Source of the DNA: Candidatus Thorarchaeota archaeon
GTDB taxonomy: Archaea > Asgardarchaeota > Thorarchaeia > Thorarchaeales > Thorarchaeaceae
Direction of reading: 5' to 3'
Length of the DNA: 64,000 bases
Assembly (NCBI GenBank): GCA_046758445.1
Contig: JBHIAE010000008.1
Span: 15,806 to 79,805, forward strand
In this document: positions 41,452 to 60,462 of the stretch, one piece after another
Numbering within the stretch: the first letter of the stretch is position 1
How the letters are laid out: the number at the start of each line of letters is the position of its first letter
The notes under the pieces: model-generated
Database searches by the model: none
Seen by the model: the letters and a program-made list of their open reading frames with translations, nothing else
Told to the model about the DNA's origin: nothing
Position numbers and translations under genes: made by a program

Positions 41452-44400
41452 TCACGTCACTGTGAGAATCAGGCTCATAGTGTCCACCACTCCTTCCTCC
41501 GTCTTCAGGACTAGCTGAACGAGATACTGAGCCACTATCAATCCTGTTGGCAAGAAGGCTGTCACCAACGGGGACGTACCATACAGGTCGCCAGGCCCTA
41601 CAGTTCCTACGCCGAGGACGAACGTCGTGTTAGTGGGACTTACAGTGGGTGCGACATCTCCACTGTGCCAATTGACTGAGAAGTTACCTGCGTTGATGAC
41701 TATCTCCAGGGTTAGGTCATGACTCACGTTGTCGTTGTTTCTCAGAAGCGTTACCAGACTTGAATGGTCACCTGAAACCATTGTCACCGGGCTGAAGACG
41801 GCGCTGTCAAAGCCGACCTCACCAGTGCCGACTGCTGTCTGATTAAGCAGGCCAAACATCTCATAGTATGCCTCTATGACATTGCTTCCAAGAGTGACCC
41901 GCTCCCCAGTTTCAGCATCTACCAGGCCCACTCCACCGAGTTTCTCGATGACTATATTCTGTTGGGTTGTTTCCACTTCGAGAAAGACTGGGACAACGAA
42001 GAAGAGATCACCTCCAAGATGATAGAGCAGCCTGTTGCCATATCTGTGAGAGCCCCATAATTGCAGCTGAGTACGGACTGCATCGTTGGTTTCGAAAGCT
42101 TGCTGAGCTGCTGAGGGGCCCAACAATGTCGAGAAGCCTAACTCACCTGCCTTGTAGAACCTCAGAACACCAAAGTCTTTGTTCCCAGATCCCATGACGT
42201 ATATTCCGGCCAGGTTTCGTCCTGGTGCGTCCCTGAACTCGCTATTGTGCATTGCTACGAATCGTTCCACTCCGCCGATGCGCATGATGATGTACCGAGT
42301 ATCGGACCCGTCCGGAGTTTCTTGAAAGTCATAACCACCTCTCCAGACTAGACCGTCAGTCACATGATAGATGTAGGCAACTTCGAGCTGACGCTCGTAG
42401 AGATCTTCGGGCCACTTCATCTGTGATTGCAGCCAGCTCGGCGTTGCAGTCCAGTTATAGTAGCTCATGTACGTGCTGTCTAGGAAGAAGGCACTGTCCT
42501 CCACAGGTGATTCGTAGAAGACCAACTCTCCTGTTTCAATGTCAACAAGTGCTACTCCTATGAACCGCATATAGTGTTCATGAGCATAGCCGGTGGCGAG
42601 AGGGTAGTCCACGAATATGGAAACTGCATAGTGTATCCTGCCATCAGGTGCAACAATGATGTAGGGATCTTTGTCGACTCGAAGGCCCTGAAGCATGACT
42701 GCCTGCACTCTCGAGACCACATCTCGCTGAACAAGCATGTCCATATCTCGACCCAGAAACGACCATGCCTCTGGACCCATTGTGAGTATGTAGAAGAACG
42801 ACTCAAAGCCGCTAAGAGTGTAGTCAGGTTGTCCTTGGAACGTCACGTTTCCAACCTCGTTGAATCCAGGAACGTTCACAAAGACGACATCTGAGAACCC
42901 TCTTCCTTCACCATAGTAGGTGTTCACCATTGATGTTCGATTGAGTAGAGCAATCAGGTTGTCTCCTTCAACAATGTCTCCACTGTAGGCGTCCAAGACA
43001 ACCAACCCTTCGGTATGAGTGTAGATTAGATGTTGGTTGATGAAGCTGGTGGTAGTAGCCTCAACATCAAATGTCAAAGGAGCAATCCAGTACTCGTGAC
43101 TTTGCAGAAACACTATGTCAGAGTCTGCAAGCTGCATCCAGTTGGTCCCAATCTGATTTCTCATCCGCTTATAGCTTGCTTCCTGGTCCCATTGACGTAC
43201 AGTAGTCAGATACTCCACTTCGCCCTCGGGCGTTGCGTTCAGAGTCAAGTCATCGAGGGCCTGAATCTGCATGTCGGCTACGCCAGCCGCCCAGTTAGTG
43301 ATCTCAATCTCCTTGCGAGTTTCATATTCGAATTTCCAGTCCAGGTACTTGTCGCCCTCCATCTGGATACCATAGTATACTGCCTGGATGGCAGGCAGCA
43401 TCACCACGACAAGTATGAGAATCACTGCAACGACACCAAACCTGCGCTGCACTCCAAAGATTGGAACCAATCTTTCGAACTTCAGTCGCCTAAGCTCGTT
43501 GCCTATGTTGGCCCGATCTTCCATCAGGAGTGTTACTCTTCTCTTGTAGTCCTGGGCATCGATAGCGCCCGACTCATACTCCTGTCGGAGTGACATGAGC
43601 TCCCCCTGTAGACGCGCAAGGTCCTCCTCAAGGTTAGATATCTTTCCCCGCAGCCGCTGTTGCGCATCGCCAGACCTGACCCTCACGAACATGAAGAGAA
43701 GCGCCCCGATGAAAGATGCAGCTAGAGCAACAATTAGGGCAACGTATGACATCCATGTTCCGGCATTGACTGTCCACATTGGAACGCTGAGAATCTCCAG
43801 TATGATGGCTAGAGCGACGACGAAGAGGCCCTTGGAAATCACTACGAACATGTCCCGTCGTGCTGTCATCATGTCAGTGACCACGCTCAGTGCAATCCGA
43901 CCAGCAGTGAAGATGACGAAAGTCGCTATGAGGCCCATGTAGAGTTGGTAAGCCTCCATGGCCGGAATTATGCTGATGACTGATGAGGCTGGAGTCCCCG
44001 GAGCAAAGGGCAAGGCGAACAGCGTGCCTACTTCTCCGGGCGAGATTGAGATGGAACCATCGCCCATCAGCATCATTAGAAACGCTACGTTTTGACCTGT
44101 GACTGAGTAGCCTCCGGTCGCAACATAGTACATGAAGAGACCGCCAAATTGGAGGAGCCTCCATGCAACCGCCGATCGGAGTTCCAGACGCTTTGGAATT
44201 GCCCCTGTCTGGGCAAGGGCAGACAGGAATGACAGGAAGGTCGATCGCTGGGGGAGAGTGATCATACTAAGAATGGTAAGCAGCAGTGACGCTGTGAAGA
44301 TGTTGTTCTTGAGCGTCCACGTTTGCCAGAAGTCCACTCCGGCCTTTGCGTCGTAAGTGTTCTGGAAGATTACCTGGCCTAAGAACCAACCGTAGCCGGC

Positions 44401-44493
44401 GCCCAGGGCTGTAATGATGACTGCTGCTAGGATAACCAGAATGATGAGGACTCGTCCGATTCTCATAAGGTCTGTACCTCTTGATAGCGTCAA
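41452..44493 (-). CDS. UPF0182-family membrane protein with coiled-coil insert and beta-rich C-terminal extension
   Basis: N-terminal TMs; VRQWD, NQHLIYTH, YYGE, DPY, WPEDL, GN.L motifs. Confidence 0.8.
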   Translation of the reverse strand: MTLSRGTDLMRIGRVLIILVILAAVIITALGAGYGWFLGQVIFQNTYDAKAGVDFWQTWTLKNNIFTASLLLTILSMITLPQRSTFLSFLSALAQTGAIPKRLELRSAVAWRLLQFGGLFMYYVATGGYSVTGQNVAFLMMLMGDGSISISPGEVGTLFALPFAPGTPASSVISIIPAMEAYQLYMGLIATFVIFTAGRIALSVVTDMMTARRDMFVVISKGLFVVALAIILEILSVPMWTVNAGTWMSYVALIVALAASFIGALLFMFVRVRSGDAQQRLRGKISNLEEDLARLQGELMSLRQEYESGAIDAQDYKRRVTLLMEDRANIGNELRRLKFERLVPIFGVQRRFGVVAVILILVVVMLPAIQAVYYGIQMEGDKYLDWKFEYETRKEIEITNWAAGVADMQIQALDDLTLNATPEGEVEYLTTVRQWDQEASYKRMRNQIGTNWMQLADSDIVFLQSHEYWIAPLTFDVEATTTSFINQHLIYTHTEGLVVLDAYSGDIVEGDNLIALLNRTSMVNTYYGEGRGFSDVVFVNVPGFNEVGNVTFQGQPDYTLSGFESFFYILTMGPEAWSFLGRDMDMLVQRDVVSRVQAVMLQGLRVDKDPYIIVAPDGRIHYAVSIFVDYPLATGYAHEHYMRFIGVALVDIETGELVFYESPVEDSAFFLDSTYMSYYNWTATPSWLQSQMKWPEDLYERQLEVAYIYHVTDGLVWRGGYDFQETPDGSDTRYIIMRIGGVERFVAMHNSEFRDAPGRNLAGIYVMGSGNKDFGVLRFYKAGELGFSTLLGPSAAQQAFETNDAVRTQLQLWGSHRYGNRLLYHLGGDLFFVVPVFLEVETTQQNIVIEKLGGVGLVDAETGERVTLGSNVIEAYYEMFGLLNQTAVGTGEVGFDSAVFSPVTMVSGDHSSLVTLLRNNDNVSHDLTLEIVINAGNFSVNWHSGDVAPTVSPTNTTFVLGVGTVGPGDLYGTSPLVTAFLPTGLIVAQYLVQLVLKTEEGVVDTMSLILTVT

Positions 44494-44632
44494 GTCACCA
44501 AGTATTATGATGCATATGAGGCTATGGTTATCTGAAATGGCCGGCTAATCTAAACCAGTAGAAGGCCAGAAACTGCCCTTTTCTGACGTCAATTCGGAAG
44601 CAATATCAGTGCGAAATAGATGTACTTTCGTT

Positions 44633-44795
44633 ATGGCACGGCCATTATGGTCTGTACACCTTCTGAAGAAGACGCTTCCAAGCGTCAGAAACATCGCCAA
44701 GATGACCAATATCCCTGTCATTGGGAGGATTATTGGCCAATGCTCTTCGGGAACGACGATGTCATCTGTCCGCCGAAGGACAGTGTGGCCCGGGG
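44633..44795 (+). pseudogene. N-terminal remnant of a 4Fe-4S binding protein gene (frameshifted, truncated)
   Basis: MARPLWSVHLLKKTLP...IPVIGRII, then in a shifted frame MLFGNDDVICPPKDSV; recalled as the N-terminus of an archaeal 4Fe-4S protein family. Confidence 0.55.
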
Positions 44796-44811
44796 GCACA
44801 CTGATCACATC

Positions 44812-44837
44812 CATTGTACTCCAGGGAGTTGGACACC
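44812..44837 (-). repeat. Degenerate copy of island motif at the left border
   Basis: Minus strand reads GGTGTCCAACTCCCTGGAGTACAATG. Confidence 0.45.
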
Positions 44838-45701
44838 TTGAGAGAAAAGCCTAGAGTGATCGATTTCAGAAGATTTCAGAACATGGTGTATGACTACGCT
44901 CAGACTAGGGAATTCCTTGGAAACGTTGACCTGCGTTCGCCCCTTGTGATGGACTTCATAATGCTCATGGCTGAGAACCGCATGATTCCTGAACACCGAG
45001 AGATAAGCATTGAACAGACCATGAGGGAACGGGAAGTCCAATTCCTTGACTGGTTTCTTCTGGAGAGAGAGTTTCACGATGGAAAGACAATCGGTGAGCT
45101 GTACATCGACAGCGAGAGCTTCGAACGCGACTTCGGCCTTGCAGCAACGGCAGACCTAAGACGGATTGTACAAACACTCAGAGAACCCATCTGGAATGAT
45201 TTCACTGTCGTCGGGAAGCAAGAAAAGGACCGGTACTGGGTGGAGCAGTTTGACACTGACAACGCATTTCTCGTTCATGATAAGTCGACCTTTGTCCGGT
45301 TCGAGGTTGGTGCGACCTTCTATTCAAAGCTGATTCCGTTTGGTGGCGTGTATTATCTGGGAACTGACCCAATCATAATACCTAAGGAGCGCGTAGAGAA
45401 GTACTTCAAGGTCAAGGCGCTCTTAGAATCACTTGAGGAAAGGCTTGAAGTGTTCATGGAGGGAAAGGCGGGTCTTGCTCCCAAGACTCGACGCAAGTAT
45501 GAGGAGTCGATTCCACTCCTGCTAGACTTCGTTGATTTCAAGCACTACACGAAACCGAGTCAGGTCAAGGATCTCGACGTAGACACGATGATAAAGTGGG
45601 CTAGTGAGGAGTTCTGGCTCTCCAAATGGAAGGAGGACCAATATCGCAGTGCGATCAAGCACATCGTGAGGTACCTATCCAAGATAGAGAACTGGGAGTA
45701 G
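44814..45701 (+). CDS. Hypothetical protein with C-terminal integrase core-binding (SAM-like) helical segment
   Basis: FLDWFLLE...GKTIGELYI; LEVFMEGKAGLAPKTRRKY...; likely start 44856 or 44883. Confidence 0.65.
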   Translation: MYSRELDTLREKPRVIDFRRFQNMVYDYAQTREFLGNVDLRSPLVMDFIMLMAENRMIPEHREISIEQTMREREVQFLDWFLLEREFHDGKTIGELYIDSESFERDFGLAATADLRRIVQTLREPIWNDFTVVGKQEKDRYWVEQFDTDNAFLVHDKSTFVRFEVGATFYSKLIPFGGVYYLGTDPIIIPKERVEKYFKVKALLESLEERLEVFMEGKAGLAPKTRRKYEESIPLLLDFVDFKHYTKPSQVKDLDVDTMIKWASEEFWLSKWKEDQYRSAIKHIVRYLSKIENWE

Positions 45702-45753
45702 AGAGCGGCAAAGATTGCGAAGCAGGTGGTGAAGAGGGCATCTGACTCGCGCT

Positions 45754-45864
45754 GAACAGAGACCAGAAACAATCTGCCCAACTCTGTCCAAGTTCGAGGT
45801 AGCTGTTCGTAGTCCTTCTGATGCATTCATCTCATAGAAGGCTTGGACAACAACCATGTTGGAT
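45754..45864 (+). repeat. Island motif copy with facing inverted half-site
   Basis: GAACAGAGACCAGAAACAA-TCTGCCCAAC-TCTGTCCAAG, then CTTGGACA (45842) and GTTGGAT (45858). Confidence 0.7.
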
Positions 45865-46301
45865 CAGGACTCAACTTTCGTGCGGAACTCTTCCAATAGG
45901 CGGGAAGCAAGATCGAAGACAATCCTTGCTTGTTCAACTGCACGACTGGCATCCGCCTGGGTGAACAGCTCGTCGGGCGGCGTGCCCGAGCTCTCATCAC
46001 CGTACATTGCCAGGCCTGTTACACCAGAGAGCTGGCGTGATATGATACGTACACGGTCAATCTCGGTTTCGAACCAGTCCGGAAACATCTCTCGATTGTG
46101 CAAGATTAGATCACTGACCTCATGACTCCCCGGATATTCGATTCCAAAAAGCCGGAGAACAGACTTTGTCGATATCTCGACGCACTCCTGTGAGTATCGT
46201 ATGGCCTCAGGGTAGTCTTTCCGCTTCAACGCCGCAGGCGCATCGACCAGACGTGACCTTGCCCTCTTTAAGTACCCCTGGGCCATGTCAATGTTCGTCA
46301 T
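45864..46301 (-). CDS. HEPN domain protein (HEPN-MNT pair)
   Basis: A..YL.RA..RL, SQECVE..K, YPGSHEV, AMYGDE..PP; ATGA overlap with MNT. Confidence 0.9.
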   Translation of the reverse strand: MTNIDMAQGYLKRARSRLVDAPAALKRKDYPEAIRYSQECVEISTKSVLRLFGIEYPGSHEVSDLILHNREMFPDWFETEIDRVRIISRQLSGVTGLAMYGDESSGTPPDELFTQADASRAVEQARIVFDLASRLLEEFRTKVES

Positions 46302-47041
46302 ATCTCGAAGACTTCCCCCATCTTGACTCCTTCCTTCATCACCCAGTACCAGCTTCTGTCAGGAAGTACGACACGTTTCGACCCCAACTCCTTCATTCTG
46401 GCCTCCACACGTTCTAGAATCTTCCTCATGAATCCGTCCCGGTCAAGGAGAATGACTGCGTCTAGTACTAAGTCCATGTACAACAGTCTTGGACTGTTCG
46501 CCTCTTCTGCGTCGAGAGTCAGGAATTGTATAGGTGCCAGTATGCCATCTTGTTGCCACATGTTCTTCCGGACAGGAGTGAGTGACAAGTCTATCTTGCC
46601 AATGTCCTCGGCTCTCTCCATGACCGACTTCTCCCATTCCTTCACCACCAACAGCACATCAACATCGCTCTCAGAGCTCGCATCACCACGAGCAACGGAG
46701 CCAAAGACTGTGACGGACAACAGATGCCGTCCGAACTTGTCAAGAAGGGCTGAGAGAAGCCCCCGGAACAGTGGGTCGTAGGGGGTGCTGAGGAGTCTTC
46801 CGAGCTTCACTGCTCCACTGGTTGCGGCCGCAAGATACGACGGGCTGAGAAGCTGATACAAACCTCGTTCAATTCGTATCGCAGACCCATGCTCCACAAA
46901 CCGACTCATCAAGATTCGTACTGACGGCCTCGTTTCACGAAGAACATCCGATGCGGTACTGAGGTCAAATGCTTTCGATCCATGGACATACCAGAGCTTG
47001 CTGTATGCCTTTCCCAGCCAGCGTGGCATCCATCTCATCAT
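46298..47041 (-). CDS. Minimal nucleotidyltransferase (MNT) with N-terminal winged helix
   Basis: FGSVARG..SESDVDVLLV; C-terminal WYW motif. Confidence 0.9.
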   Translation of the reverse strand: MMRWMPRWLGKAYSKLWYVHGSKAFDLSTASDVLRETRPSVRILMSRFVEHGSAIRIERGLYQLLSPSYLAAATSGAVKLGRLLSTPYDPLFRGLLSALLDKFGRHLLSVTVFGSVARGDASSESDVDVLLVVKEWEKSVMERAEDIGKIDLSLTPVRKNMWQQDGILAPIQFLTLDAEEANSPRLLYMDLVLDAVILLDRDGFMRKILERVEARMKELGSKRVVLPDRSWYWVMKEGVKMGEVFEI

Positions 47042-47137
47042 TGTTACCTATTTGGTAGTCATAACCAAACAGTCTATAAACATTCCGACCAATGTAACAG
47101 GACAATGGAAGCACCGGACCACAAACAGCTCCAAAGG

Positions 47138-47256
47138 TTGTGCCGTTTCTCGTTCAACGCCCGTTTTCTGGGGTCACCAGGGATTGTTTGACATGGGCCC
47201 ACTTGCGATTGGACCGGCCGGCCACAAGGACACGGCTACGCCTTGATGGAATGGAC
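47138..47256 (+). repeat. 119-bp direct repeat, copy 1
   Basis: Colinear with 54876-54994, ~83% identity by eye, last 52 bp 49/52 identical. Confidence 0.9.
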
Positions 47257-47460
47257 GTCAAATACCGTCGACTGAAGTCAATGGCTTGTACAGTCAGTCG
47301 GTAACTGCCCACGTCTGAGCCGTTGGCTGGACCCCGGACCTAATGCGATATGCGACACTGAGGCACCACTCTCTCGTCCCACTGATTGTATTCAAGCACG
47401 TACAGGATACCTATTCCTCCCACGACCGAAGTCGCGGGTATCCTAGATGAAGCCTTGTGA
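47257..47460 (+). mobile_element. Non-autonomous IS200/IS605-like miniature element (~200 bp)
   Basis: Begins GTCAAATACC-hairpin(CGACTGAAGTC)-GGCTTG; ends ATTCCTCCCACGACCGAAGTCGCGGGTATCCT-N12-GTGA; no ORF. Confidence 0.75.
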
Positions 47461-47565
47461 AGATTGGCCGCTTAGAAGACGGCAAAGGCTGCGAAACAGG
47501 GTGAAGAAGGCAATCTGATCCTCGTTGAATGCGTCGGCTAGCGGGAAAACGAGTAGGCCTACATA

Positions 47566-47616
47566 TTTCCTCTCTACATATTCTCTATTCTCTCTTTATT
47601 CTCTCTATGTTCTCTC
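47566..47616 (+). repeat. Pyrimidine-rich low-complexity tract (degenerate TTCTCT(CT)AT units)
   Basis: TTTCCTCTCTACATATTCTCTATTCTCTCTTTATTCTCTCTATGTTCTCTC. Confidence 0.6.
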
Positions 47617-47625
47617 AAGTGTCCC

Positions 47626-47717
47626 GAACAGAAGCCAGCAACAATCTGTCCAACTTCGCCCAACCTGCAATGAAAGGTCTTTCATGCTAGAGTCTTTCGA
47701 TGAAACTTGGTCTAGTC
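47626..47717 (+). repeat. Island motif copy with facing inverted half-site
   Basis: GAACAGAAGCCAGCAACAA-TCTGTCCAAC-TTCGCCCAAC-CTGCAATG, then TGAAACTTGGTCTAGTC (47701). Confidence 0.7.
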
Positions 47718-47740
47718 TGAGAAACGCTGGGACTACAGTG

Positions 47741-48528
47741 TCAGACTGTATCGATTTGGAGCCAGTCTAGTGAAGCTCGCAGTTGTTCAAGTACCTCGGT
47801 CATTTGAGGTACTGGGTGAACCAGTCTCTCGAGACTCTTCCCCCAATACTCAGACAGGACTTGCTCAAGATGGGGGGAAAGATGTCCTTGATTGTGGGCC
47901 ACGGTATGTTCTTAGCTCTCAGCTTCCTGCGGAGAATCTCTCGAACTCGGCTTCGGTTTATCCTAGATTCAGCCATTCTCCAGACGTCGTAATAGTCTCG
48001 TGCTTTCCCACGTTGCAAGATTGCTCTCAGTTTCTCTGCAAGTATCTCCTCTCTACTTAGAACTCGTACTTCGAAACTGGGGTAGTCGGAGTATACTTGC
48101 CAGAGCGGTAGGCTCTGGATGGTTCACAATGGAGAGTCGGATGTCATGTCTACTCTCAGCCAGTTCCTGTGTAGTATAGCGTAATACTGGACCTTCAACT
48201 GAAGGTAGCTTGGATTGCTGTATTGGCTCCGGATGGAGAACTCAATCCCGGAATCGCCTGATGCCGCCTTAAGTGCGTCTGATACTTGAGTTCCAAGAAT
48301 ACCCCAATCATTGTGGGTCGTGGAGAAGTCAAGGTCCTCAGATAGTCTCCAAGTTTCGGGGAAATAGACCTTGGACAGTGCTGTACCTCCTTTGAAGATG
48401 ATATCCGATACGTTCTTCAGACCGAAGAGTGCCCATCCTAGAACATAGTCTTTCTCAATCATGGCTAGGGGTAGTCCTCTACTTCGCGCCATGGTCATCA
48501 GTTCTCGCTTGGGAATCAGTACATCCAC
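47741..48528 (-). pseudogene. AbiEii/AbiGii nucleotidyltransferase toxin, inactivated (in-frame TGA at 48124-48126 and frameshift in the G6 run at 47872-47877)
   Basis: IEKDY, FKGGTAL, RLSEDLDF before the TGA; EEILAEKLRA..RGKARDYYD in the same frame after it; plausible C-terminus resumes in a shifted frame. Confidence 0.85.
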
Positions 48529-49331
48529 CCCTCTGGATCCAAGCGGCAATTCACGAGTAGATTCCATTGGCTATCATGTTTTCCTCTCCTGGGCGACAAT
48601 GGGTCTAATTTGGGATACCCCTTGGTGGGTATGAACCCTGTTAGGTAATCCCCGTACTCTCTCATCATGTCTAGATTCTCGAGAATGTAGCCTAGCCGCT
48701 TGAGAATAGTGGCGTTTCCCATCTTTCTAGCATGTTGGACCACGCGTTCAAAATCAAGCTCTACATGATAGAAGTAGATTGACATCGCTATCTGTTCGAT
48801 ACCTCCGCAGTTCTCCGGATGATCCAAACAGTCTACGACAGTCTTTTCTCCATCAGAGATTCGGACTTCTCTCGACTCGATTTCTGTTTCTTCCCATCCG
48901 AAGAATTTCCTCGACGAGAGCTTTACAAACCTGTATTCGGTGTTCAGGACATGGAGTGGATGCTTTGGTGTGGTTGTTGCAACAAAGACTGTTCTCGGAA
49001 TCTGATCGGTCAGTCCATGATGGTTTAGAGCAGACCAATACGCTATGTAGTAGCTCTTGGTCAAGAACGATGCAATTACAAACTCATGCATCAAAAACGC
49101 ATCTGCCCCCTCAAGCCCCATGTCAAGTGGTACAATCACATAAAGCCCTCGCTTGAGCCTGAGAACCCACTTCTTCTTTACTAGACCGCGAACTATGTTC
49201 TTTGCACTTGGACCTACAATATCCTGAGCATCACTGAGGGCAAAGACAACATTCTTTGTTTCTGCTAGCCTAAGCAATAGACGCGCCTCTTTCCTACCCA
49301 ATCCTCTATATTGCCTTGCAGATAACGACAC
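48516..49331 (-). CDS. AbiEi-family antitoxin / transcriptional regulator
   Basis: wHTH RLKRGLY, YIAYWSALNHHGLTDQIP, SDGEKTVVDCLDHP..CGG, KRLGY. Confidence 0.92.
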   Translation of the reverse strand: MSLSARQYRGLGRKEARLLLRLAETKNVVFALSDAQDIVGPSAKNIVRGLVKKKWVLRLKRGLYVIVPLDMGLEGADAFLMHEFVIASFLTKSYYIAYWSALNHHGLTDQIPRTVFVATTTPKHPLHVLNTEYRFVKLSSRKFFGWEETEIESREVRISDGEKTVVDCLDHPENCGGIEQIAMSIYFYHVELDFERVVQHARKMGNATILKRLGYILENLDMMREYGDYLTGFIPTKGYPKLDPLSPRRGKHDSQWNLLVNCRLDPEGWMY

Positions 49332-49586
49332 CTTAGACCACCTACTGCAATGACATATGAACCCCCCCTCTTAAACACAACCCTTGGAAACATTGGTTAG
49401 TGCTTATGATTGCCTTCCCCTATGAGGAACCTGGCAAGTGAAGTCTGACTGGCTGGAGGATGTAGACACCGAGGTTTGCCGAGATGTTCAGCCCACGGCT
49501 ACTAATGTCCGAGGCGTGCAGATCGAAGGCATGGCTCGCACAGTACCTAGTGCTGTCAAGGTTCAGTGAATATCTGACAGCTGTGT

Positions 49587-49742
49587 GAAACTTGGACAGT
49601 CTTGGACAGGCCCTCACATACTCACGTACGAGATAGCATCCTGATGTTGTTTTGACACGACCAGTGACCTCACAGAGTATGTTCCCAGTGCCGTTTCTGG
49701 GAGGACAAGACTCTGGTGTCCGACTCTGTCCAACTTACAATG
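49587..49742. repeat. Inverted pair of island motif copies
   Basis: GAAA-CTTGGACAGT-CTTGGACAGG (49587-49610) and GGTGTCCGAC-TCTGTCCAAC-TTACAATG (49715-49742). Confidence 0.7.
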
Positions 49743-50230
49743 TGTTGCACTTCAAATTGTAACGTTTACATTTTCTGGAGCACTTAGTGAAAAAAGAGAG
49801 CGTTTCTAGCTAGTGTTGTCTGGGTCCATATCAATCGGTATCTCGGGATAATTGGCTATATGGGGGAAGGGTCCAGTCCAGATGCATTTCTGATCCACCC
49901 ATAGAAACAGCACACTTAGCAGTAGTTCAGGGGCCAAATCCTTTCGAATTAGAAATAGAAGTTTGAAGGAGGACTGTCAGCCAGTCAGAAAGAGTGATAG
50001 GCCTTCGTGTCCAATAGATGACCTGGTGGCGTGGGCCTAGTTTTCGTTACATGCCCTCAAAATATCGAAACTCCCCTCCTACCACGATTTGCCCACGCCC
50101 CAGCTCTTTCTTGCCAGTATCAGATAGCCTGATGTGCCATACTTGAGCATAGAACAAGGAGCTCGGATATCCACGTGGTCGACTCGATCCCCTCGACTAA
50201 CAGGTACCTCTTGAGGAATAGGACGAGTCT

Positions 50231-50467
50231 TCAGATGCCCAGATGCCGCTTTGCCTCTCTAATCCCATCACCTGAGAGAGAGTAGGACCGGACCTTCATC
50301 TGAAGGACATAACCGTCTCTGACCAGCCGCTTCAGTTGCCTTTTCAGACTCCTTTGAGTTGTACCGCATAGACGGGCAATCGCCTCAATCGGAATATGCC
50401 TGCTCTTCATTGCTTTGCGTCTGAACATGCAGGCCAGCAGTTCTAGGTCGGAATCTGAAAGAGCCAT
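50231..50467 (-). CDS. Small winged-helix protein
   Basis: IEAIARLC...LKRLVRDGYV..YSLS..G; TTAAATA box ~25 bp upstream. Confidence 0.7.
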   Translation of the reverse strand: MALSDSDLELLACMFRRKAMKSRHIPIEAIARLCGTTQRSLKRQLKRLVRDGYVLQMKVRSYSLSGDGIREAKRHLGI

Positions 50468-50573
50468 AGGCTATGCACCATAATAAACCTATTTAAGCAT
50501 TGTGTATTATAGAACAGAGAAATATATATAGATGTAACAACATGACGCAATAGGATAATTGAACCATTGAATT

Positions 50574-51266
50574 ATGGAGAGATGTTTCGCAATGAGTGAC
50601 AGAATGAGATTTGAAGACGCTGTAGGAAAGGTACTTGGTGCCATCAAGTTGAATGAGCCCCTGACAGTGAACAAGATAGCTGATGAGTCCGGGGTGATGT
50701 GGCCTACCGCGGAACGGATCATAGATCTCACGTTAGAAATCCAAGACTTTCTTGCAGCCAATGAGATCCTTGTCATTGGAAGTCGTCCCAAGAAGTTGGT
50801 CCTCATTGAGGCGCGCGTGGAGATGACCCGTCTTTCTGGAGAAGTGTTGGACTGGTTCATCGAATCAGCATACTTCACCACTCCGAGGAGAGAATACTCC
50901 ACTGAAGAGGCCCGCAAGATCATAGCTCCGAGAAAAGAGACCAGGACCCCCTTTCATGAGGCCATCATTCGAGTGGTCCGCGCCCTGGAACTAGAAGACC
51001 AGCTCAGTATTCTGGAATTATCCAAGCGGTGTGACTTGAACCGCCGGACGGTAGAGAGAGTGCTTTCTCTGCTCTTGTTACACCAAGACACGATCTCCAA
51101 GTCCCAGTTTGTGAAGGAAAAGGACTTCATCATCAGACAGCCGTTGCCATCTCTCTATGAGCTCGACAGTGCCAGGATGATGTATCTTCTCAAGAGGAGG
51201 TATATTCCTGATGAAGCTGCTAAGATCCCCAAGGAGAGAGAGCGTGAACTCCTGAGTCTTCCTTAG
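50574..51266 (+). CDS. Tandem winged-HTH regulator (internal duplication)
   Basis: LTVNKIADESGVMWPTAERIIDL and LSILELSKRCDLNRRTVERVLSL; AT-rich divergent promoter at 50480-50540. Confidence 0.75.
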   Translation: MERCFAMSDRMRFEDAVGKVLGAIKLNEPLTVNKIADESGVMWPTAERIIDLTLEIQDFLAANEILVIGSRPKKLVLIEARVEMTRLSGEVLDWFIESAYFTTPRREYSTEEARKIIAPRKETRTPFHEAIIRVVRALELEDQLSILELSKRCDLNRRTVERVLSLLLLHQDTISKSQFVKEKDFIIRQPLPSLYELDSARMMYLLKRRYIPDEAAKIPKERERELLSLP

Positions 51267-51307
51267 TGGCGTGGCTATCGAAGGACCCGACTATTTAAGG
51301 TCCGAAG

Positions 51308-51339
51308 TTTCCCCGGGGAAAGTTCGCCCGGGCGAACTT
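51308..51339. repeat. Two abutting perfect palindromes
   Basis: TTTCCCCGGGGAAA (51308-51321) and AAGTTCGCCCGGGCGAACTT (51320-51339). Confidence 0.85.
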
Positions 51340-51343
51340 CCCA

Positions 51344-51640
51344 CTAGGCGACGTTCGAGTGGGATGCGGACTTGATGATGTAATAGAGCCCCAGACCAAA
51401 GAGGATGGAGGTCACGACCCCGCCGAAGATCACAGCGGGAAACATGAGCAGCTCCTCTAGTGGTGCATAGGTGAAGGGAGGTGCGTTACTCCTGATAGCA
51501 ATCACATAGACGGCGTATGCTAGAAGGCCCCCGCTGGTTCCTAAGTAGACCAGACCCTTCCGGAACCAAGCTTTGTGTAAATCTTGACCCAAGTTTGAAC
51601 CCTCAATGGATTGTTGACGAGAATGAATGAAGCTCTGCAC
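51344..51640 (-). CDS. Two-TM protein, possibly the 3' remnant of a decayed longer gene
   Basis: Two hydrophobic helices; protein-like fragments in other frames upstream to ~51780. Confidence 0.4.
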   Translation of the reverse strand: MQSFIHSRQQSIEGSNLGQDLHKAWFRKGLVYLGTSGGLLAYAVYVIAIRSNAPPFTYAPLEELLMFPAVIFGGVVTSILFGLGLYYIIKSASHSNVA

Positions 51641-51891
51641 TAAAACTTTGTGTGATAAGCCGCAAGAATCTGGAAGTATTGCTGAAACACCTCATTACCT
51701 TTACTACGAGCTCGGCGATGGTCTTGATCAGGTTCTCATCGATGAGTCCCTCATTCAGTTTCGTCTGATTCCCTGGATAAGAACTCCCCTCAGCAAATCT
51801 CACATCGCCACAACCTGCTAGAGTCCCTCTCTCACAGTAATCAGGTCGACATAGAGGATCCTCGAGGGTCCCGGGGGAGTCTTCATGTGGA

Positions 51892-51911
51892 AATATGGCG
51901 CGCGCCATATT
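51892..51911. repeat. Perfect 20-bp palindrome
   Basis: AATATGGCGCGCGCCATATT. Confidence 0.85.
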
Positions 51912-52264
51912 CGGACGGTAGGCTCTCTCACAATTGAAAGAAGCGGGCAGCTCATACCCACTTCTCCTCTTTATTTCTGCGTTTCATCTTCCTGGCAAAC
52001 CAGCGGAGCATGTGCTCTATCCGTCTCTCAAGAATGCTGAAGTCTGACTATTTAAGGCCCGAAGACCCCGGGTTTTGACTCGAGGGAATTCTATTCCTCG
52101 ATCTCGATTCTATCAAGACCACGAGATAGAGAAGCTGTGTGAATCCCTTTCAATATGAGATTCATTGCTGCCAATGGAACATTTCATGCTAGTGAGTATT
52201 GTACAAATCACCACCGTGCGACATATAAGATTGATAAACAATATGATTTGTTAGGGAAATTGTC

Positions 52265-53200
52265 ATGGGATGTAGGATGAATCGAGGCATACTAATCTTC
52301 TCAGTGGCTGGGCTTTTCTTGATGGCTCAGCTGTCATTTGTGACGCCTTATGCAGTACCGATAGCTGATGGAGCACCTAAGATTACCTTTGGAGACCCAC
52401 AGGAGGCTCTATCGTCAGGTGACTATTGGTGTCCGGGAGACTCGCAGGAGGCTCTATCATCAGGTGATTATTGGTATCAAGGAGCACCGCAGACGCCTCT
52501 ATCATCTGATGAACGTTGGTGGGCGGGAACACAGCGTTGGGGCGGTCCTCATGCGCCCACCATAGTAAAATCTATGGAGACGGTGATAAAGACTCCTAAT
52601 GGGTGGCCAGGGTCAGATGATGAATACTATTTACTCCTCTCTGCTTGGGTAGATTCCCCCGGATGTGCCACTTATGTTCAGATTGGTTTCTCAACTATTG
52701 ACTACCCCCATGACCCTAGTCAGGTTTGGGGTCTGACAACGTCATATACTGTGGATGGGCTCTTTCCTTGGGACCCAAACTGGGGCTGGGTTGACCCATG
52801 GGAATATGTGTACGAACCGCATGAGATGACTTTGGGAAAGAACACCTACTACACCTTCGAGATGGTCATCGACGATGGCGACCTTACCTTTAATATGTAC
52901 AAAGGTGGATTGCGACAATTCACCAAGACTGTGGACACAGGCGGTAACTGGCTCCTAACTTCTGCGTGGGTCTACCCATCTTGGAGATACTGGCCGTGGT
53001 TCCCAGTTTATGGTTATACTTTATATGAGGAGATCTTGCCAGACGGTGTCACACCAAGTTTCGATTTCGTGTTCTCTGGCATATATGCAGGCGACGTCAA
53101 GTGGACCTATTGGCATGAGTGTTACTACGGTGATGTCCCTCCTGAAGTCGATGTATTCTTACCTTCACCCATCTACTGGTTTAAGATACTCAACTCATAG
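52265..53200 (+). CDS. Secreted aromatic-rich protein, glutamic peptidase G1-like
   Basis: Signal peptide; WWAG, SAWV...YVQIG, LYEE, F.F.G elements in G1-like order. Confidence 0.55.
   Translation: MGCRMNRGILIFSVAGLFLMAQLSFVTPYAVPIADGAPKITFGDPQEALSSGDYWCPGDSQEALSSGDYWYQGAPQTPLSSDERWWAGTQRWGGPHAPTIVKSMETVIKTPNGWPGSDDEYYLLLSAWVDSPGCATYVQIGFSTIDYPHDPSQVWGLTTSYTVDGLFPWDPNWGWVDPWEYVYEPHEMTLGKNTYYTFEMVIDDGDLTFNMYKGGLRQFTKTVDTGGNWLLTSAWVYPSWRYWPWFPVYGYTLYEEILPDGVTPSFDFVFSGIYAGDVKWTYWHECYYGDVPPEVDVFLPSPIYWFKILNS
52391..52525 (+). repeat. Three 45-bp (15-aa) tandem coding repeats
   Basis: GDPQEALSSGDYWCP / GDSQEALSSGDYWYQ / GAPQTPLSSDERWWA. Confidence 0.9.
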
Positions 53201-53433
53201 GCAACGGATACTCAGAACAGTCAGAGGTATATGGGGCACGCTCTCGCAGGAAATCACTGTTTCTCATTGGTGGAATCTCAGCTATGCTTCATGAACCTCT
53301 GTGGCGCTAGGACGACGAGAACTCGTGGTGAAACCGATGAGTCAGATGTCAAATCGGAGGTTATTGAGTGACCGAAAAATCGATATTGGCTTACGAAAGA
53401 TATCGTCATAGTAGAGTGGTTTCATAACGGAGC

Positions 53434-53793
53434 TTGTGTAGGTTGAAGATTACTATGGTCTATTTTCCAGCCCTCACTTACGCCATTGTGGTCCTAGGTG
53501 TTGCCTACTTCATATATAGAAAGACTTGGAAGACGGACCCAAGTGTCATCCCGATGAGATCGCTTGTCTTTCTTGTGCTCGTCATCCTGTTTGCCGCCCT
53601 AGATGTTATCGCGCTGACGACTCCATTACTTGGTGGCCCTGTGTGGGTAGACAGCCTGCCACAGCTTCTGATATGGATCTGGCCTGATATCATAGTACTT
53701 GTTGCGTTGGTTGTTGATCTATGCAGGTCTTGGCATCTTCGGACTCTTCGTGGTCAGAACCCTGATTTGGCTCAAAGGATTCCTTCTAGTTAG
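53434..53793 (+). CDS. Small 3-TM membrane protein
   Basis: Three hydrophobic helices; likely start MVYFP at 53455. Confidence 0.6.
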   Translation: MCRLKITMVYFPALTYAIVVLGVAYFIYRKTWKTDPSVIPMRSLVFLVLVILFAALDVIALTTPLLGGPVWVDSLPQLLIWIWPDIIVLVALVVDLCRSWHLRTLRGQNPDLAQRIPSS

Positions 53794-53916
53794 ATTGATG
53801 TTCGCCAAACCTTAGGCATGAGAATGGTTAGTCGAGTAAACTATTCTTCCTCCTTTCCGATCCATTGTAGTGCTCGTGTGGAATAGGAGTATTGAAACCT
53901 GACCAGGTCCAGTCCT

Positions 53917-54534
53917 CTATCCATCCTCTTCAACGTCCCGAGTCCACATGAGATCAAGCTCAAGCAGACGGTCCATGACTCTTCTCGCCACCTTGGGAAC
54001 TTGTTCCTCGCACTTGGCGCCCACGATGACAATCTTGCCGGAGCCGAATATCAGGACCACGGCCTTTGGATCCTTCAATCGATAGACTAGGCCCGGGAAC
54101 TGTTCAGGCTCATACATACTGTTCTCGAGTGTCATGACAGCCCGTTCGAGGTCCACGGGAACACCGAGACTGCCACAGGCCACGACGTTCTGTATTGTGA
54201 TTGCAGGTCTGCCCCTCATCCTGATACCGGCCTTATTGAGGCTCTTAACAATCTTGCGAACTGCCCTCTTGACCTCCTTCTCACTCTTGGTTCCAGTACA
54301 CACCATCTTTCCGGTACTGAAGATCAGTGTTGCAGTCTTGGGCTTCCTGAGACGGTAGACTAGACCGGGGAACCCTCCCGGGTCATACTCAACATTGGGT
54401 ATTGTAAATGCTATCTCATCCAGGTCAAGCCGCTGATTGAGAATGACAGAGGCTACAATGTTCTCAATCTTGGTCGTGATCTTTGATTTCGGCGTAATGA
54501 CACTCTCTGATTTCTCTACATGTAAGAGAACCAC
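53917..54534 (-). CDS. tbp: TATA-box binding protein
   Basis: Two repeats: IENIVAS..YDPGGFPGLVYRL..LIFSTGKMVCTG and IQNVVA..YEPEQFPGLVYRL..LIFGSGKIVIVG. Confidence 0.97.
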   Translation of the reverse strand: MVLLHVEKSESVITPKSKITTKIENIVASVILNQRLDLDEIAFTIPNVEYDPGGFPGLVYRLRKPKTATLIFSTGKMVCTGTKSEKEVKRAVRKIVKSLNKAGIRMRGRPAITIQNVVACGSLGVPVDLERAVMTLENSMYEPEQFPGLVYRLKDPKAVVLIFGSGKIVIVGAKCEEQVPKVARRVMDRLLELDLMWTRDVEEDG

Positions 54535-54838
54535 AGGCTCTTCATATGCTTCTTTGCATTAACTCTGGGATGGCCGGTTTCGCGTGCCGAGTCTACTTGG
54601 AATCTCAAGAAGGAAATTATTGATGGCCTAATTGACATGCTATTTGGAGAGTAGTAGATAGTACTTGTAGTTTGCGCGCGCCAAGTCTTGACTATGAGGC
54701 CGCTTGACATGCTGAGGCTCAGACTTCGATGAAACTGGAAGACTAAACCTGTACCAGTCCCCATCGACCTGTTCCAGTTGGCCATTGAAGCACAGGCTGT
54801 TGATCACATCCTCTGGAGGTTCTCTGGAGGGACAAGGG

Positions 54839-54872
54839 ACAATGTGTCGAACTTTATCTAACTTACAATGAA
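54839..54872 (+). repeat. Island motif copy
   Basis: ACAATGTGTCGAACTTTATCTAACTTACAATGAA, 26/34 identical to 47641-47674. Confidence 0.7.
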
Positions 54873-54875
54873 CGA

Positions 54876-54994
54876 TTGTGCCACTCCTCTTTCAACCCCC
54901 GTGTCCTGGGATCATCAGGCATGGTTTCGCATCAGCCCTCTCGCGATTGGACCGGCCAGCCCCAAGGACACGGCTTCGCCTTGATGGAATGGAC
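54876..54994 (+). repeat. 119-bp direct repeat, copy 2 (followed by ATGA)
   Basis: Matches 47138-47256. Confidence 0.9.
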
Positions 54995-55132
54995 ATGACC
55001 TCGTGCTGAAGTGTCTGGCCGTCCAGTGATGGAGCATTGTTTATAGCGTAGGTTGCGGACGCAGTCACTCACGAACACCTCACTATTGCTGACAGGATTG
55101 TCAGTTGGAGAGATTGGATCCTCAGATTCGCG

Positions 55133-55600
55133 ATGAGGTACGACACTGTGCCGAAGACTACCAGAGTCAATGTGGACATAAGGGATATCGCTGAGGCCAT
55201 TGCCAACGGGTCACCAGGTATTGAGTATTATCTCGATCTTGAAACCGGCGAGATTGTGTGGCTTGCAGACGACATCGTAGTGGAAGAAGATCGTGGGATC
55301 AGGGAGGCAATTGAGGCAGGCATAGAGGAGCGATTTGTGGACATACCTTACGTGCACTCCCATGAGGGATATCGGGACATGAAGGACTTCATTGACACTC
55401 TTGTTGATGACAGCCTCAGAGAGAAGCTCTACATCGCAATCGACGGTAGAGGAGCCTTTAGGCGCTTCAAGGACGTGCTTCTGAGCTATCCAGAAGAGAG
55501 GGAGAAATGGTTCGAGTTCAGTAGCAGCAGGAACTTGCAACGGGCCAAGGCCTGGTTGGAGGAACGAGGAATTGAGGCTATCCGCGCCGATGATAGATGA
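55133..55600 (+). CDS. UPF0158 family protein
   Basis: YYLDLETGEI, GYRDMKDFI, AIDGRGAFRRFKDVL, W..F...AKAWLEERGI. Confidence 0.9.
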   Translation: MRYDTVPKTTRVNVDIRDIAEAIANGSPGIEYYLDLETGEIVWLADDIVVEEDRGIREAIEAGIEERFVDIPYVHSHEGYRDMKDFIDTLVDDSLREKLYIAIDGRGAFRRFKDVLLSYPEEREKWFEFSSSRNLQRAKAWLEERGIEAIRADDR

Positions 55601-55627
55601 GCCTCGAATGTCAACGACCTCCAGGTT

Positions 55628-55677
55628 TCATAGAAATCGGTCAAGGAAACCACCGACTTCAGTCGATGGTAGTTGAC
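55628..55677 (-). mobile_element. Minimal 50-bp single-hairpin IS200/IS605-like remnant
   Basis: Minus strand GTCAACTACCATCGACTGAAGTCGGTGGTTTCCT-N12-ATGA. Confidence 0.75.
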
Positions 55678-55977
55678 TGAACATTGCAGATGCAGAGATG
55701 CGCTTCTGTCCCAAGCGGAACAGAGGATTCCCTTTTGGACAAGAAGGGGAGTGAAACGCGACTGACCGAAACAGGTCAGAGTTCTATGAACGGTGATGGC
55801 GATGCAACAGTTGTGTATCCGGTAGCACAGGAGAGGCCTCGATGGAGAGGATTGAAAGCGTCTGTACGGTAGGACTTACTTCAGTCCATTGCAGAACATA
55901 TCCCCCCGCTACAGTTCTCACGACTGAAACATCATCGAAGTCTTGCCATCGGACCATTTGACCGGCATGTTGGAATA

Positions 55978-56133
55978 TTAGTCAACGGTCGTGCTGTAAT
56001 CAGCGAAGAGTGCAGGGGCTGTGGACGCTGTGTAGAGGCATGTCCAAATGGTGCCATCAATCTTTTCATTGACGACTCGGACTACTTCGAAGAATCGGCC
56101 AGGCGGGTTTCCAGTGCTGTGGATGTTTCTTAG
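55978..56133 (+). pseudogene. C-terminal remnant of a 4Fe-4S binding protein gene
   Basis: LVNGRAVISEECRGCGRCVEACPNGAI...SAVDVS*; no start codon in frame back to TAG 55870. Confidence 0.8.
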
Positions 56134-56249
56134 CGACTGGAGAAACGATTCTACTGGTACAGTTCGCCCTGTTCAGTAACCTTTTTCTGTCATCACAGCG
56201 CGCCACGACTGTCACTGTGATTGCGAACTATGGAATCTGAGGGTTCAAT

Positions 56250-57599
56250 ATGACCAAGATCGTAGTTATTGGAATGGGCTATGTAGGAATCCCCTGTGCT
56301 GCCCTCCTGGCAGATGTCGACGGTTTTGACGTAACCGGACTTCAGAGGAGGTCAAAGCGTTCAGGATGGAAGATAGATGTTCTGAACGACGGCAAGTCAC
56401 CTATCGAGGGTGATGAGCCCGGCCTTGCTGAACTGATTGCCAGGGTAGTCAAGAAGGGGACTTTCAGAGTGACCGATGACACGAAGGTGCTCTCTGAGGC
56501 TGATGTCATACTGATAGATGTACAGACACCAACGGACCAACTCCACGTTCCACAGTACCAGTCTCTCAGAGAGGTAAGTGCGAGCGTTGGAAAGCACATG
56601 CAACCTGGGACTCTGGTCGTTGTGGAGTCTACAGTGGCACCTGGTACAACAGAGAACGTAGTTCAGAAGATAATAGAGAGAGAGAGCGGACTCCAGTGCG
56701 GAGAGGACTTCGACCTTGCGTTCTCATACGAACGTGTCATGCCAGGGAAACTGATCAGGAATATTGTCCATTTGCCTAGAGTCGTCGGTGGAGTCAATGC
56801 AAAGAGTACCGACAGGGCTGTGGAAATCTACTCGAAGATTGTCAAGGAGAAGATATACAAGACTCAAGTGCTCACCGCTGAACTCTCAAAGACTATCGAG
56901 AATGCATATCGTGATGTCAACATTGCCTTTGCTAATGAAATGGCACTGGTCTGTGAGAGTCTGGGGGAGAACGTGTATGAGATAATTGACCTTGTCAACG
57001 TTCTACCCAGTAGGATGATGCTCATACCAGGCGCCGGTGTCGGAGGCCATTGCCTTCCGAAGGACTCTTGGCTCCTTCGACATGGGCTGTATGAATATGG
57101 GGCATGGAAGGTTGAGCCTGAGTTCATCTCTCTTGCCCGACGGATCAACAACCAGATGCCCATCCACATGAGCCTCTTGGTGGAGAACGCACTCGTTTCT
57201 AAGGGGGTTTCTGTGGGAGAGGCGAAAGTCACCATCCTCGGAGTCGCCTACCTTGAGAACTCAGATGACACGAGAAACACGCCGGCTGCGCCGTTGATAG
57301 CTGCTCTACAGGCAAAGGGCGCAGAGGTTGTGCTCCATGACCCTCACGTTCGAGAATGGGACTTCGGGCCTCTCAACATTGAGCGAGACATCATCAAGGC
57401 CTGCACTGGTTCGGACTGCTTGGCCTTGGTCACCAAGCATCGTGAATACCTCTCATTGGACCTAGACAGATTGAAGTCGGCCATGCGAACGCCGGCCATT
57501 GTCGACGGAAGAAACGTCTTCCACCTCGATGAAGTCCAGAGCAAAGGGTTCGAGTATAGATGCGTAGGCAAGGCAGGTATATACCGGCAAGACAAGTGA
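56250..57599 (+). CDS. Nucleotide-sugar 6-dehydrogenase (WecC/UDP-GlcNAc dehydrogenase family)
   Basis: GMGYVG, VESTVAPGTT, ERVMPG, ENAYRDVNIAFANE, GVGGHCLPKD. Confidence 0.95.
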   Translation: MTKIVVIGMGYVGIPCAALLADVDGFDVTGLQRRSKRSGWKIDVLNDGKSPIEGDEPGLAELIARVVKKGTFRVTDDTKVLSEADVILIDVQTPTDQLHVPQYQSLREVSASVGKHMQPGTLVVVESTVAPGTTENVVQKIIERESGLQCGEDFDLAFSYERVMPGKLIRNIVHLPRVVGGVNAKSTDRAVEIYSKIVKEKIYKTQVLTAELSKTIENAYRDVNIAFANEMALVCESLGENVYEIIDLVNVLPSRMMLIPGAGVGGHCLPKDSWLLRHGLYEYGAWKVEPEFISLARRINNQMPIHMSLLVENALVSKGVSVGEAKVTILGVAYLENSDDTRNTPAAPLIAALQAKGAEVVLHDPHVREWDFGPLNIERDIIKACTGSDCLALVTKHREYLSLDLDRLKSAMRTPAIVDGRNVFHLDEVQSKGFEYRCVGKAGIYRQDK

Positions 57600-57622
57600 G
57601 AAATCAGATGGCCCAAGCCAAT

Positions 57623-58864: not shown

Positions 58865-58867
58865 TTC

Positions 58868-60175: not shown

Positions 60176-60462
60176 CCTAGCCTAGAGCACTTCGCACTGG
60201 GCTTGGTTTGTGAGAGCCCCTAATGGGATTTAAAACCACTTCTTACTATTGTAAGTGGACTCGCAGGAACCTTTTGTGTTCCACCCTTCTCACGACCGTT
60301 GTCACCAGCCTGAGTCAGACCTGGGTCTGATGCAGTGACGTGAGCTTTTCCCGGCTTCCTTGAGATACTATCCCTCTGTAGGAACTCAGCTTCAGTCCGC
60401 TGCATTTCTCCATCATTGCCAGAAGTTCTGAATGCAGGCGGGATTTCCACAGTTGGTTTCGC

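Follow-up and report, generated by a model that had tools for sequence, protein, structure and literature searches.

The window analysed here, a stretch of 64,000 nucleotides (nt) from a Candidatus Thorarchaeota genome (C8:15806-79805), carries an island with a 272/295-aa orphan gene, HEPN-MNT, a truncated AbiEii plus AbiEi, a winged helix-turn-helix protein, further orphans, a TBP paralogue and UPF0158, and within this island a motif built of tandem TGTCCAA units recurs. A first-pass annotation had read the motif as the site of a trans-acting recombinase or transposase that stacks gene cassettes at this locus in an unrecognised, integron-like capture system. We followed it through the whole assembly (3.25 Mb, 113 contigs, completeness 92.7%) and through 30 related genomes, which were compared for unit counts and by protein searches, and found that it is the right end of a dispersed repeat family. 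In the following C numbers are contigs of the source genome, G000 is the source genome, other G numbers are relatives and L numbers are loci in relatives.

The plus-strand copies at 45769, 47641, 49715 and 54839 and the minus-strand copies at 44812 and 49587 are present in the sequence as that annotation had described them. When up to 3 mismatches are allowed, the tandem 20-mer has 3 matches in the window against 0.01 expected, and in a find-repeats comparison the likeness between copies reached past the motif itself: 47646-47672, 49716-49742 and 54844-54870 have the common ending (T/C)T(A/G)CAATG, the arms at 49586-49608 and 49717-49739 are inverse to each other, and 45754-45791 resembles 47626-47663 (82% identity), along with an upstream block of ~50 nt (45699-45750 and 47473-47525). 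The position at module boundaries that had been proposed for the copies amounts to a position in intergenic DNA. We also ran nhmmer hidden Markov models (HMMs), trained only on copies from outside the window, on the 12-kb island, and here the half-copies did not prove individually significant (44812, E 0.29; 45842, with its match at 45838-45850, E 1.8; 47701, no match), and in the remaining 52 kb of the window no family-HMM score fell below E 0.4. What had been taken for a degenerate motif copy at 60248 comes from the 3' region of another TnpB family.

The family has ~17 copies in the 3.25-Mb genome and is not specific to the island. Its right end has the form TGTCCAA(G/C)-NN-TGTCCAAC-TTACAATGAACGG, and the consensus of ~14 copies, obtained by pattern scan and alignment, reads ...CCCAGTGCCGTTTCTGGG-GGACA..ACTCC-GTGTCCAAG-NN-TGTCCAAC-TTACAATGAACGG(T), with the homology breaking off sharply after ACAATGAACGG(T). 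Using blastn and window positions 44000-61000 as query against the whole assembly, 49561-49742 was found to have relatives on many contigs, every one of them ending at the same base, and in a genome-wide search the outside-trained HMM recovered 49682-49742 (E 8e-15), two further loci and the fragment at 54819-54875. Most copies are gene-less and intergenic and lie beside genes such as those for MetRS, eIF2-alpha, S8e, Trm5 and a wyosine radical-SAM enzyme (TYW1), and the neighbour genes are unrelated and stand in either orientation. The relatives contain between 0 and 21 copies per genome, with copies only in genomes of the same family. A tie of the motif to accessory-gene boundaries did not hold, the same ends being found genome-wide, beside housekeeping genes and after tnpB genes. 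The ATG of ...ACAATG was also considered as the start of a conserved open reading frame (ORF) and rejected, since the sequences diverge immediately and some of them reach stops.

Nine gene-less copies align over ~200 nt. Each unit runs from a left end T(T/A)(G/T)C(T/C)AACAGCTGCC..AAAAC over the inverse motif TTGGACA-AAG-TTGGACA and an inner region with three hairpins to the motif of the first-pass annotation and the tail TTACAATGAACGG, and the two arms stand back from the element ends by ~23 nt and 14 nt. These units share the traits of PATE elements and of miniature inverted-repeat transposable elements (MITEs): they have no ORF, are present in multiple copies and are polymorphic between genomes, and empty sites exist. 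A tRNA scan was empty. The window copy was aligned with 8 copies on other contigs, and the match of a covariance model of the unit, R1, over 49546-49748 (Table 1) shows that 49587 on the minus strand and 49715 on the plus strand are the two arms of one element. Of the three pairs in which a plus copy faces a minus copy only this one, 108 nt apart, forms a unit; the ~90-bp palindromes proposed for the other two (45765-45870 and 47635-47730) fold no better than shuffled sequences (z -0.15 to -1.5). The window copy has its left end from ~49571 (TATCTGACAGC...), a left arm of 2 x TTGGACA at ~49590-49608, inner hairpins, a right arm at 49715-49734 and the tail TTACAATG at 49735-49742; its right end (49682-49742) scores E 3e-17 in the island alone, and the whole folds with a minimum free energy of -60.3 kcal/mol (z -2.3). 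Both of its junctions are mutated, the left with AA for GG and the right with TGTTG for AACGG, and thus it is a fossil copy. In a covariation test with 26 copies and 500 shuffles, for which the alignment was fitted to the covariance model, the inner helices showed 94.6% paired cells against 86.9% in the shuffles and 29 double-change cells against 9, values that none of the 500 shuffles equalled.

Three family copies come after TnpB-type genes (C6, C38 and C61), of which two are confirmed tnpB genes. The C6 copy starts 26 nt after a 484-aa TnpB and the C38 copy 16 nt after a 396-aa TnpB, and both proteins match Cas12f1-like_TNB (E 5e-13 and 3e-11) as well as OrfB_IS605. The C6 protein contains VDRG, FEDL and SDVNAA, which, read by eye and without alignment to a characterised TnpB, are consistent with the D-E-D triad of RuvC. 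On C61 the gene ahead of the third copy is TnpB-like but degraded, with its best match to the C38 protein (37% over 65 aa, E 6e-4), and in the congener G015 a full-length TnpB homologue with 45% identity is followed by the same right end. This right end begins within the last tnpB codons and stops after ACAATGAACGG, and the last codons of the C6 gene encode a conserved hairpin. The C38 element also possesses the left end of the mini-element with TTGGACA, located ~660 nt upstream of tnpB and 1.8 kb from the right end, so that both ends of the mini-elements are homologous to those of coding elements, the left end to C38 and the right end to C6, C38, C61 and G015. TNB-domain matches number 13 in the genome, and there is no tnpB inside the window.

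Three pairs of filled and empty sites could be compared (Table 1). In all three a single GG in the empty site is found as GG at each junction of the filled site, the target being AGGG or TGGG, and no target duplication longer than GG was present in any of the pairs. The crossover GG lies 14 nt 3' of the motif. Insertion is scarless at (A/T)GGG, which is the signature of IS607: published IS607-type elements keep strictly to GG as the core dinucleotide, use 5'-TGGG-3' as target or transposon-adjacent motif (TAM), produce no target-site duplication and leave scarless donor joints, and their ends of ~40-60 bp contain short inverted motifs of 6-7 bp required for excision (bioRxiv 10.1101/2023.11.20.567912). 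Also known are PATE-like elements that lack a gene but encode omegaRNAs and rely on TnpB in trans (Meers et al., bioRxiv 10.1101/2023.03.14.532601).

We therefore regard the motif as very probably the right-end subterminal repeats of a TnpB/IS607-like element and of its gene-less miniatures, and the island as an accessory insertion that contains decayed ends. In the model that we propose, the full element consists of the left end, tnpB and a right end that overlaps the stop codon of tnpB with its last ~65 nt. The right end contains a pair of TGTCCAA spaced by one helical turn, and the left end the inverted pair (2 x TTGGACA). The mini-elements of ~200 nt are of the PATE/MITE kind, with the left end fused to a putative structured guide-RNA (omegaRNA) region and the right end. 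An IS607-type serine transposase might move both in trans, binding the 7-bp repeats and crossing over at GG, with a Y1 transposase as a less likely alternative mover. The inner part, a predicted guide-RNA scaffold, could be transcribed as the guide RNA of TnpB, and the guide would then be the DNA just past ...ACAATGAACGG. The island itself has collected one whole fossil copy, several fragments of the family and fragments of two other TnpB families. What survives of the original claim of a site for a trans-acting recombinase or transposase is that the motif most likely serves for recognition at the ends of a mobile element which a recombinase moves in trans, whereas the unrecognised system, the likeness to integrons and the stacking of cassettes at this locus found no support.

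Several results weigh against the IS607-like interpretation. In G000, an assembly of 92.7% completeness, there was no match to PF01797 for a Y1 (HUH) TnpA and none to PF00239 for a serine recombinase. G018, which contains the most mini-element copies (21), does possess two ORFs with MerR-HTH plus Resolvase and the size of an IS607 TnpA, and no family copy adjoins either of them. Rfam has no match for the family, covariation across the two arms is weak, and the island pieces at 45776-45837 and 47622-47678 are degenerate and partly ambiguous in their orientation. Mobilisation of the IS605 type is not rigorously separated from that of the IS607 type.

For the island, a comparison with the congeners was informative. 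It is missing from at least four of them (G010, G007, G004 and G006), in which ~510 nt separate the equivalent of window ~55977 from the place where the UPF0182 region ends (window ~44789), and these ~510 nt are the middle of an intact gene for a 4Fe-4S protein of ~290 aa. As the 4Fe-4S gene is split in the window and its middle is missing, the island represents one indel of 11.2 kb with a target deletion of ~510 bp and not a clean site-specific insertion. No family motif is present at its right edge. Relative to the congeners the whole island is gained or lost as one block. In three other relatives (G005:C30, G002:C28 and G014:C6) a different insertion of ~9 kb separates the UPF0182 gene from the beginning of the 4Fe-4S gene (equivalent to ~44451-44590), and with this other insertion only a few hundred bases to the left the region is a recurrent insertion hot spot.

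Table 1. Features of the window, transposase genes of a relative and insertion sites of the family (a slash marks a junction).
Feature	Position or empty site	Strand	Basis or filled site
Complete ~200-nt gene-less mini-element	49546..49748	+	covariance model R1, 170 bits, E 4e-49; aligned with 8 copies on other contigs
3' fragment: hairpin remnant, right arm, tail ACAATGAACGA	54819..54875	+	nhmmer E 0.0012 genome-wide, E 4e-6 in island alone
Left end (AAGG/ACTACGAACAGCTACC...) and left arm	45776..45837	-	left-end HMM E 0.0022 genome-wide; covariance-model alignment
Degenerate right arm and tail (..CTGCAATGAAAGG)	47622..47678	+ (orientation ambiguous)	find-repeats families D3, D12; covariance model E 0.011
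Half-copy: one TGTCCAA unit and TACAATG	44809..44838	-	sequence; right-end HMM E 0.29 (44835-44810), not significant alone
5'/left-end fragment, second TnpB family	55720..55800	+	blastn and sequence comparison; full copies upstream of C37, C70 and C102 tnpB
3' region, third TnpB family	60231..60453	-	72% identity to C24:356-564
Accessory island	44790..55975		flanks ~510 nt apart in congeners; Pfam annotation of genes
5' remnant of split 4Fe-4S gene	44629..44789	+	intact orthologues in G010, G007, G004, G006; junction alignment
3' remnant of split 4Fe-4S gene	~55975..56130	+	intact orthologues in G010, G007, G004, G006; junction alignment
IS607-type transposase gene	G018 L069:1468-2091	-	MerR-HTH plus Resolvase, 207 aa
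IS607-type transposase gene	G018 L070:742-1275	+	MerR-HTH plus Resolvase, 177 aa
Insertion site C45b	GACAGGG/TTGCGAT (G010; similar G004, G006, G012)		GACAGGG-TTGCTAACAG...ACAATGAACGG-TTGCGAT
Insertion site C20	CCTTAGGG/CATGTCAC (G010, G007)		CCTTAAGG-TATCCAACAG...ACAATGAACGG-CATGTCAC
Insertion site C1	CAATGGG/TAGACAC (G007)		CAATGGG-TAGCTGAC...ACAATGAACGG-TAGACAG

Besides the fossil copy the island contains further pieces of the family. The left end at 45776-45837 is the best left-end match genome-wide outside the training set, with the piece 45810-45776 at E 8e-6 in the island alone, and the earlier plus-strand copy at 45769 is this same left end read from the opposite strand. For 47647-47678 the right-end HMM gave E 0.004-0.005 in the island. 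The C24 sequence to which the piece of the third TnpB family is related continues a TnpB ORF with a TNB domain at C24:5-121; the piece itself stands directly after the second AbiEii gene, and similar pieces occur in many relatives.

One alternative concerns the arms, which might mainly be the closing helix of a stand-alone structured RNA, either a TnpB guide RNA in trans or a domesticated small RNA, and not a DNA site. RNAalifold indeed pairs the left with the right arm and the window copy folds likewise, 9 of the 14 pairs show some double change, the 13 double-change cells compare with 6.3 in the shuffles (reached by 1 of 500), and L036, L022 and L005 contain wobble-type as well as independent inner and outer compensations. 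We nevertheless consider it unlikely, as the paired fraction of the arm-to-arm helix is no better than in the shuffles (83.3% against 82.0%, reached by 47 of 500), the G018 subfamily keeps a consistent G:A mismatch in the arm pairing, and the tnpB-bearing copies have no left arm in their last 200 nt, where helix 1 is not formed in the covariance-model alignments; in C38 the left arm stands in the left end, 1.8 kb away. In G003 (locus L026), moreover, all four 7-mers have changed in concert to CTAGA(A/C)A / TGTCTAG, suggesting a protein site. From this concerted change, the G018 mismatch, the failure of helix 1 and the distant C38 left arm we read the 7-mers primarily as recognition repeats at the DNA level. 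A left arm inside the coding region of the C6 tnpB, by which the arms would become a guide-RNA helix, was considered and rejected, since the covariance alignments of C6, G015 and C38 gave no support for it and the C38 arrangement also speaks against it. Inverted arms of ~20 nt and short gene-less units in multiple copies would equally suit MITEs of a DDE transposon with the arms as terminal inverted repeats. This seems very improbable given that the arms are subterminal, that no target duplication exists beyond the GG common to both junctions, that the right end is common to tnpB genes and that the inner helices co-vary. Still less probable is a role of the motif as operator or promoter of a single regulon, in which a transcription factor would bind tandem sites spaced by one helical turn: the 7-mers do repeat at a 10-bp phase and often lie upstream of genes, but the conserved stretch is ~200 nt long and includes co-varying hairpins, whole units are present or absent at orthologous sites, and the neighbour genes are unrelated and stand in either orientation.

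The view of the motif copies as recombination sites of an integron-like or otherwise new cassette-capture system, in which the first-pass annotation had placed them, is hardly credible any more and already largely refuted. It could draw on the clustering of several copies within a 10-kb island with many toxin-antitoxin and defence genes, on the weak half-copy 19 nt inside the left edge of the island and on the 272/295-aa gene, which is bracketed by this half-copy and the left end at 45776-45837. The window, however, contains neither an integrase nor a transposase, the sole Phage_integrase matches being on C34 and C52; the copies are mixed in orientation with genes on both strands, and the motif also stands genome-wide beside the housekeeping genes named above. 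Its fit to the attC core RYYYAAC is not informative, with 84 matches in the window against 103 expected, and neither the unstable palindromes nor the single indel with its motif-free right edge agree with such a system. In addition, genomes of the same family contain no close relatives of HEPN-MNT, AbiE or the 272-aa orphan, and protein searches with MNT and the 272-aa gene found no close copies in the 30 relatives. A variant of the TnpB interpretation, which we think rather improbable, is that IS607-like ends with alternative or distant partner ends could have mobilised passenger genes such as the toxin-antitoxin modules and the TBP paralogue. It is based on the left end at 45837-45776(-) and the weak right end at 44838-44809, with the 272-aa gene antisense between them at the island edge, and, on the plus strand, on the right ends at 49742 and 54875 that come after the left end at 49571. 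No test that we ran supports such a role in the assembly of the island. If it were true, a cargo-carrying mode of TnpB-type elements would assemble defence islands in an archaeal lineage.

Some further observations were made on the cargo and on other repeats. Of 5.8 billion proteins only two are related to the 272-aa orphan (44883-45701), and one of the two is identical to it; the C-terminal 85 aa of the orphan show a sub-threshold likeness (E 0.024) to the SAM-like core-binding domain of phage integrases, without a catalytic domain; a look-up in the Atlas returned only unnamed clusters below 0.9, and scans of genome and metagenome contigs for the genomic context of its only homologue, P0002, returned nothing. 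The AbiEii of the first pair (48124-48567) is truncated to 147 aa and covers profile positions 14-89 of 238, and the second pair has an AbiEii of 334 aa at 60463-61467. The island TBP gene (53899-54644) shares 89% nucleotide identity with a TBP paralogue at C21:21534-22279, and short repeats that flank the latter (C21:21373-21420, 22398-22430 and 22459-22512) are found again in the island, at 51291-51338 and 51983-52036. Three tandem 45-nt repeats, with 84% and 69% identity to the first, are located at 52391-52525 inside a 311-aa orphan ORF (52265-53200). A duplication of ~160 nt links 47133-47294 with 54871-55027 (83% identity) and starts right after the tail of the right-end fragment that ends at 54870, and part of it recurs inverted at 55647-55677; as an empty/filled pair the two were rejected, as only the right flank is common and the left flanks score 26 against 21 +/- 3 in shuffles. 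Directly before the mini-element, 49458-49566 is a third dispersed conserved element of ~110 nt (GTA.GTACCGAGCTTCGGCGAGGTATTCAGCTCACCGCTACTAATGTCCGAGGCGTG...GTTGTCAAGG) with 4-5 copies in the genome (C53, two on C67, C97), which has no Rfam match, looks structured, is ~80% conserved in most congeners and sometimes occurs three in a row ~750 nt apart (G010:C219). Finally, 50031-50093 belongs to an element of ~65-75 nt (GGGCTAGTTTTTCGTTACATGCCCTCAA...CTCCCCCCTCCTACCACGATTT) with 7 copies in the genome and ~86% identity across nearly all genomes of the genus; it matches neither Rfam nor a tRNA and might represent a small RNA or else an end of another mobile element.

In summary a false lead has been removed, as the locus is neither integron-like nor a new capture system, and a TnpB family in an archaeal lineage has been obtained with exact boundaries, its (A/T)GGG target and GG crossover, a predicted guide-RNA scaffold supported by covariation, and gene-less copies. 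The biology is not surprising, and the family should help to annotate these genomes, to explain small indels next to housekeeping genes and to mine compact RNA-guided nucleases. To the attC sites of integrons the likeness is superficial, consisting of imperfect inverted repeats with RYYYAAC-like 7-mers near toxin-antitoxin genes: here IntI, attI/Pc and a one-way cassette array are all missing, and the sites are dispersed over the genome and attached to tnpB, with core matches at chance frequency. Compared to IS607-family TnpB elements such as CboIStron (bioRxiv 10.1101/2023.11.20.567912) our family differs in its archaeal host, in having no serine TnpA in the genome or beside any copy and no group I intron, and in an inverted pair of tandem 7-mers that is clearer than the published statement of 'no inverted repeats' suggests. 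It resembles them in a tnpB whose 3' end is overlapped by a structured right end with the putative guide-RNA region, in scarless insertion with GG at both junctions of an (A/T)GGG target without target duplication, and in short motifs of 6-7 bp with inverted sense between left and right ends. PATE-like IS200/IS605 derivatives (bioRxiv 10.1101/2023.03.14.532601) differ from the mini-elements by a TAM and a transposon-encoded motif (TEM) with a subterminal hairpin at each end, where we see IS607-like junctions and detected no Y1 TnpA; they share with them the length of ~200 nt, the lack of an ORF, the multiple copies and ends homologous to tnpB-bearing elements, and presumably are likewise served by TnpA and TnpB in trans. 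The elements thus are of a known kind, namely TnpB/IS607-like elements with miniatures that would be guide-RNA-only, and form a new and well-delimited family of it.

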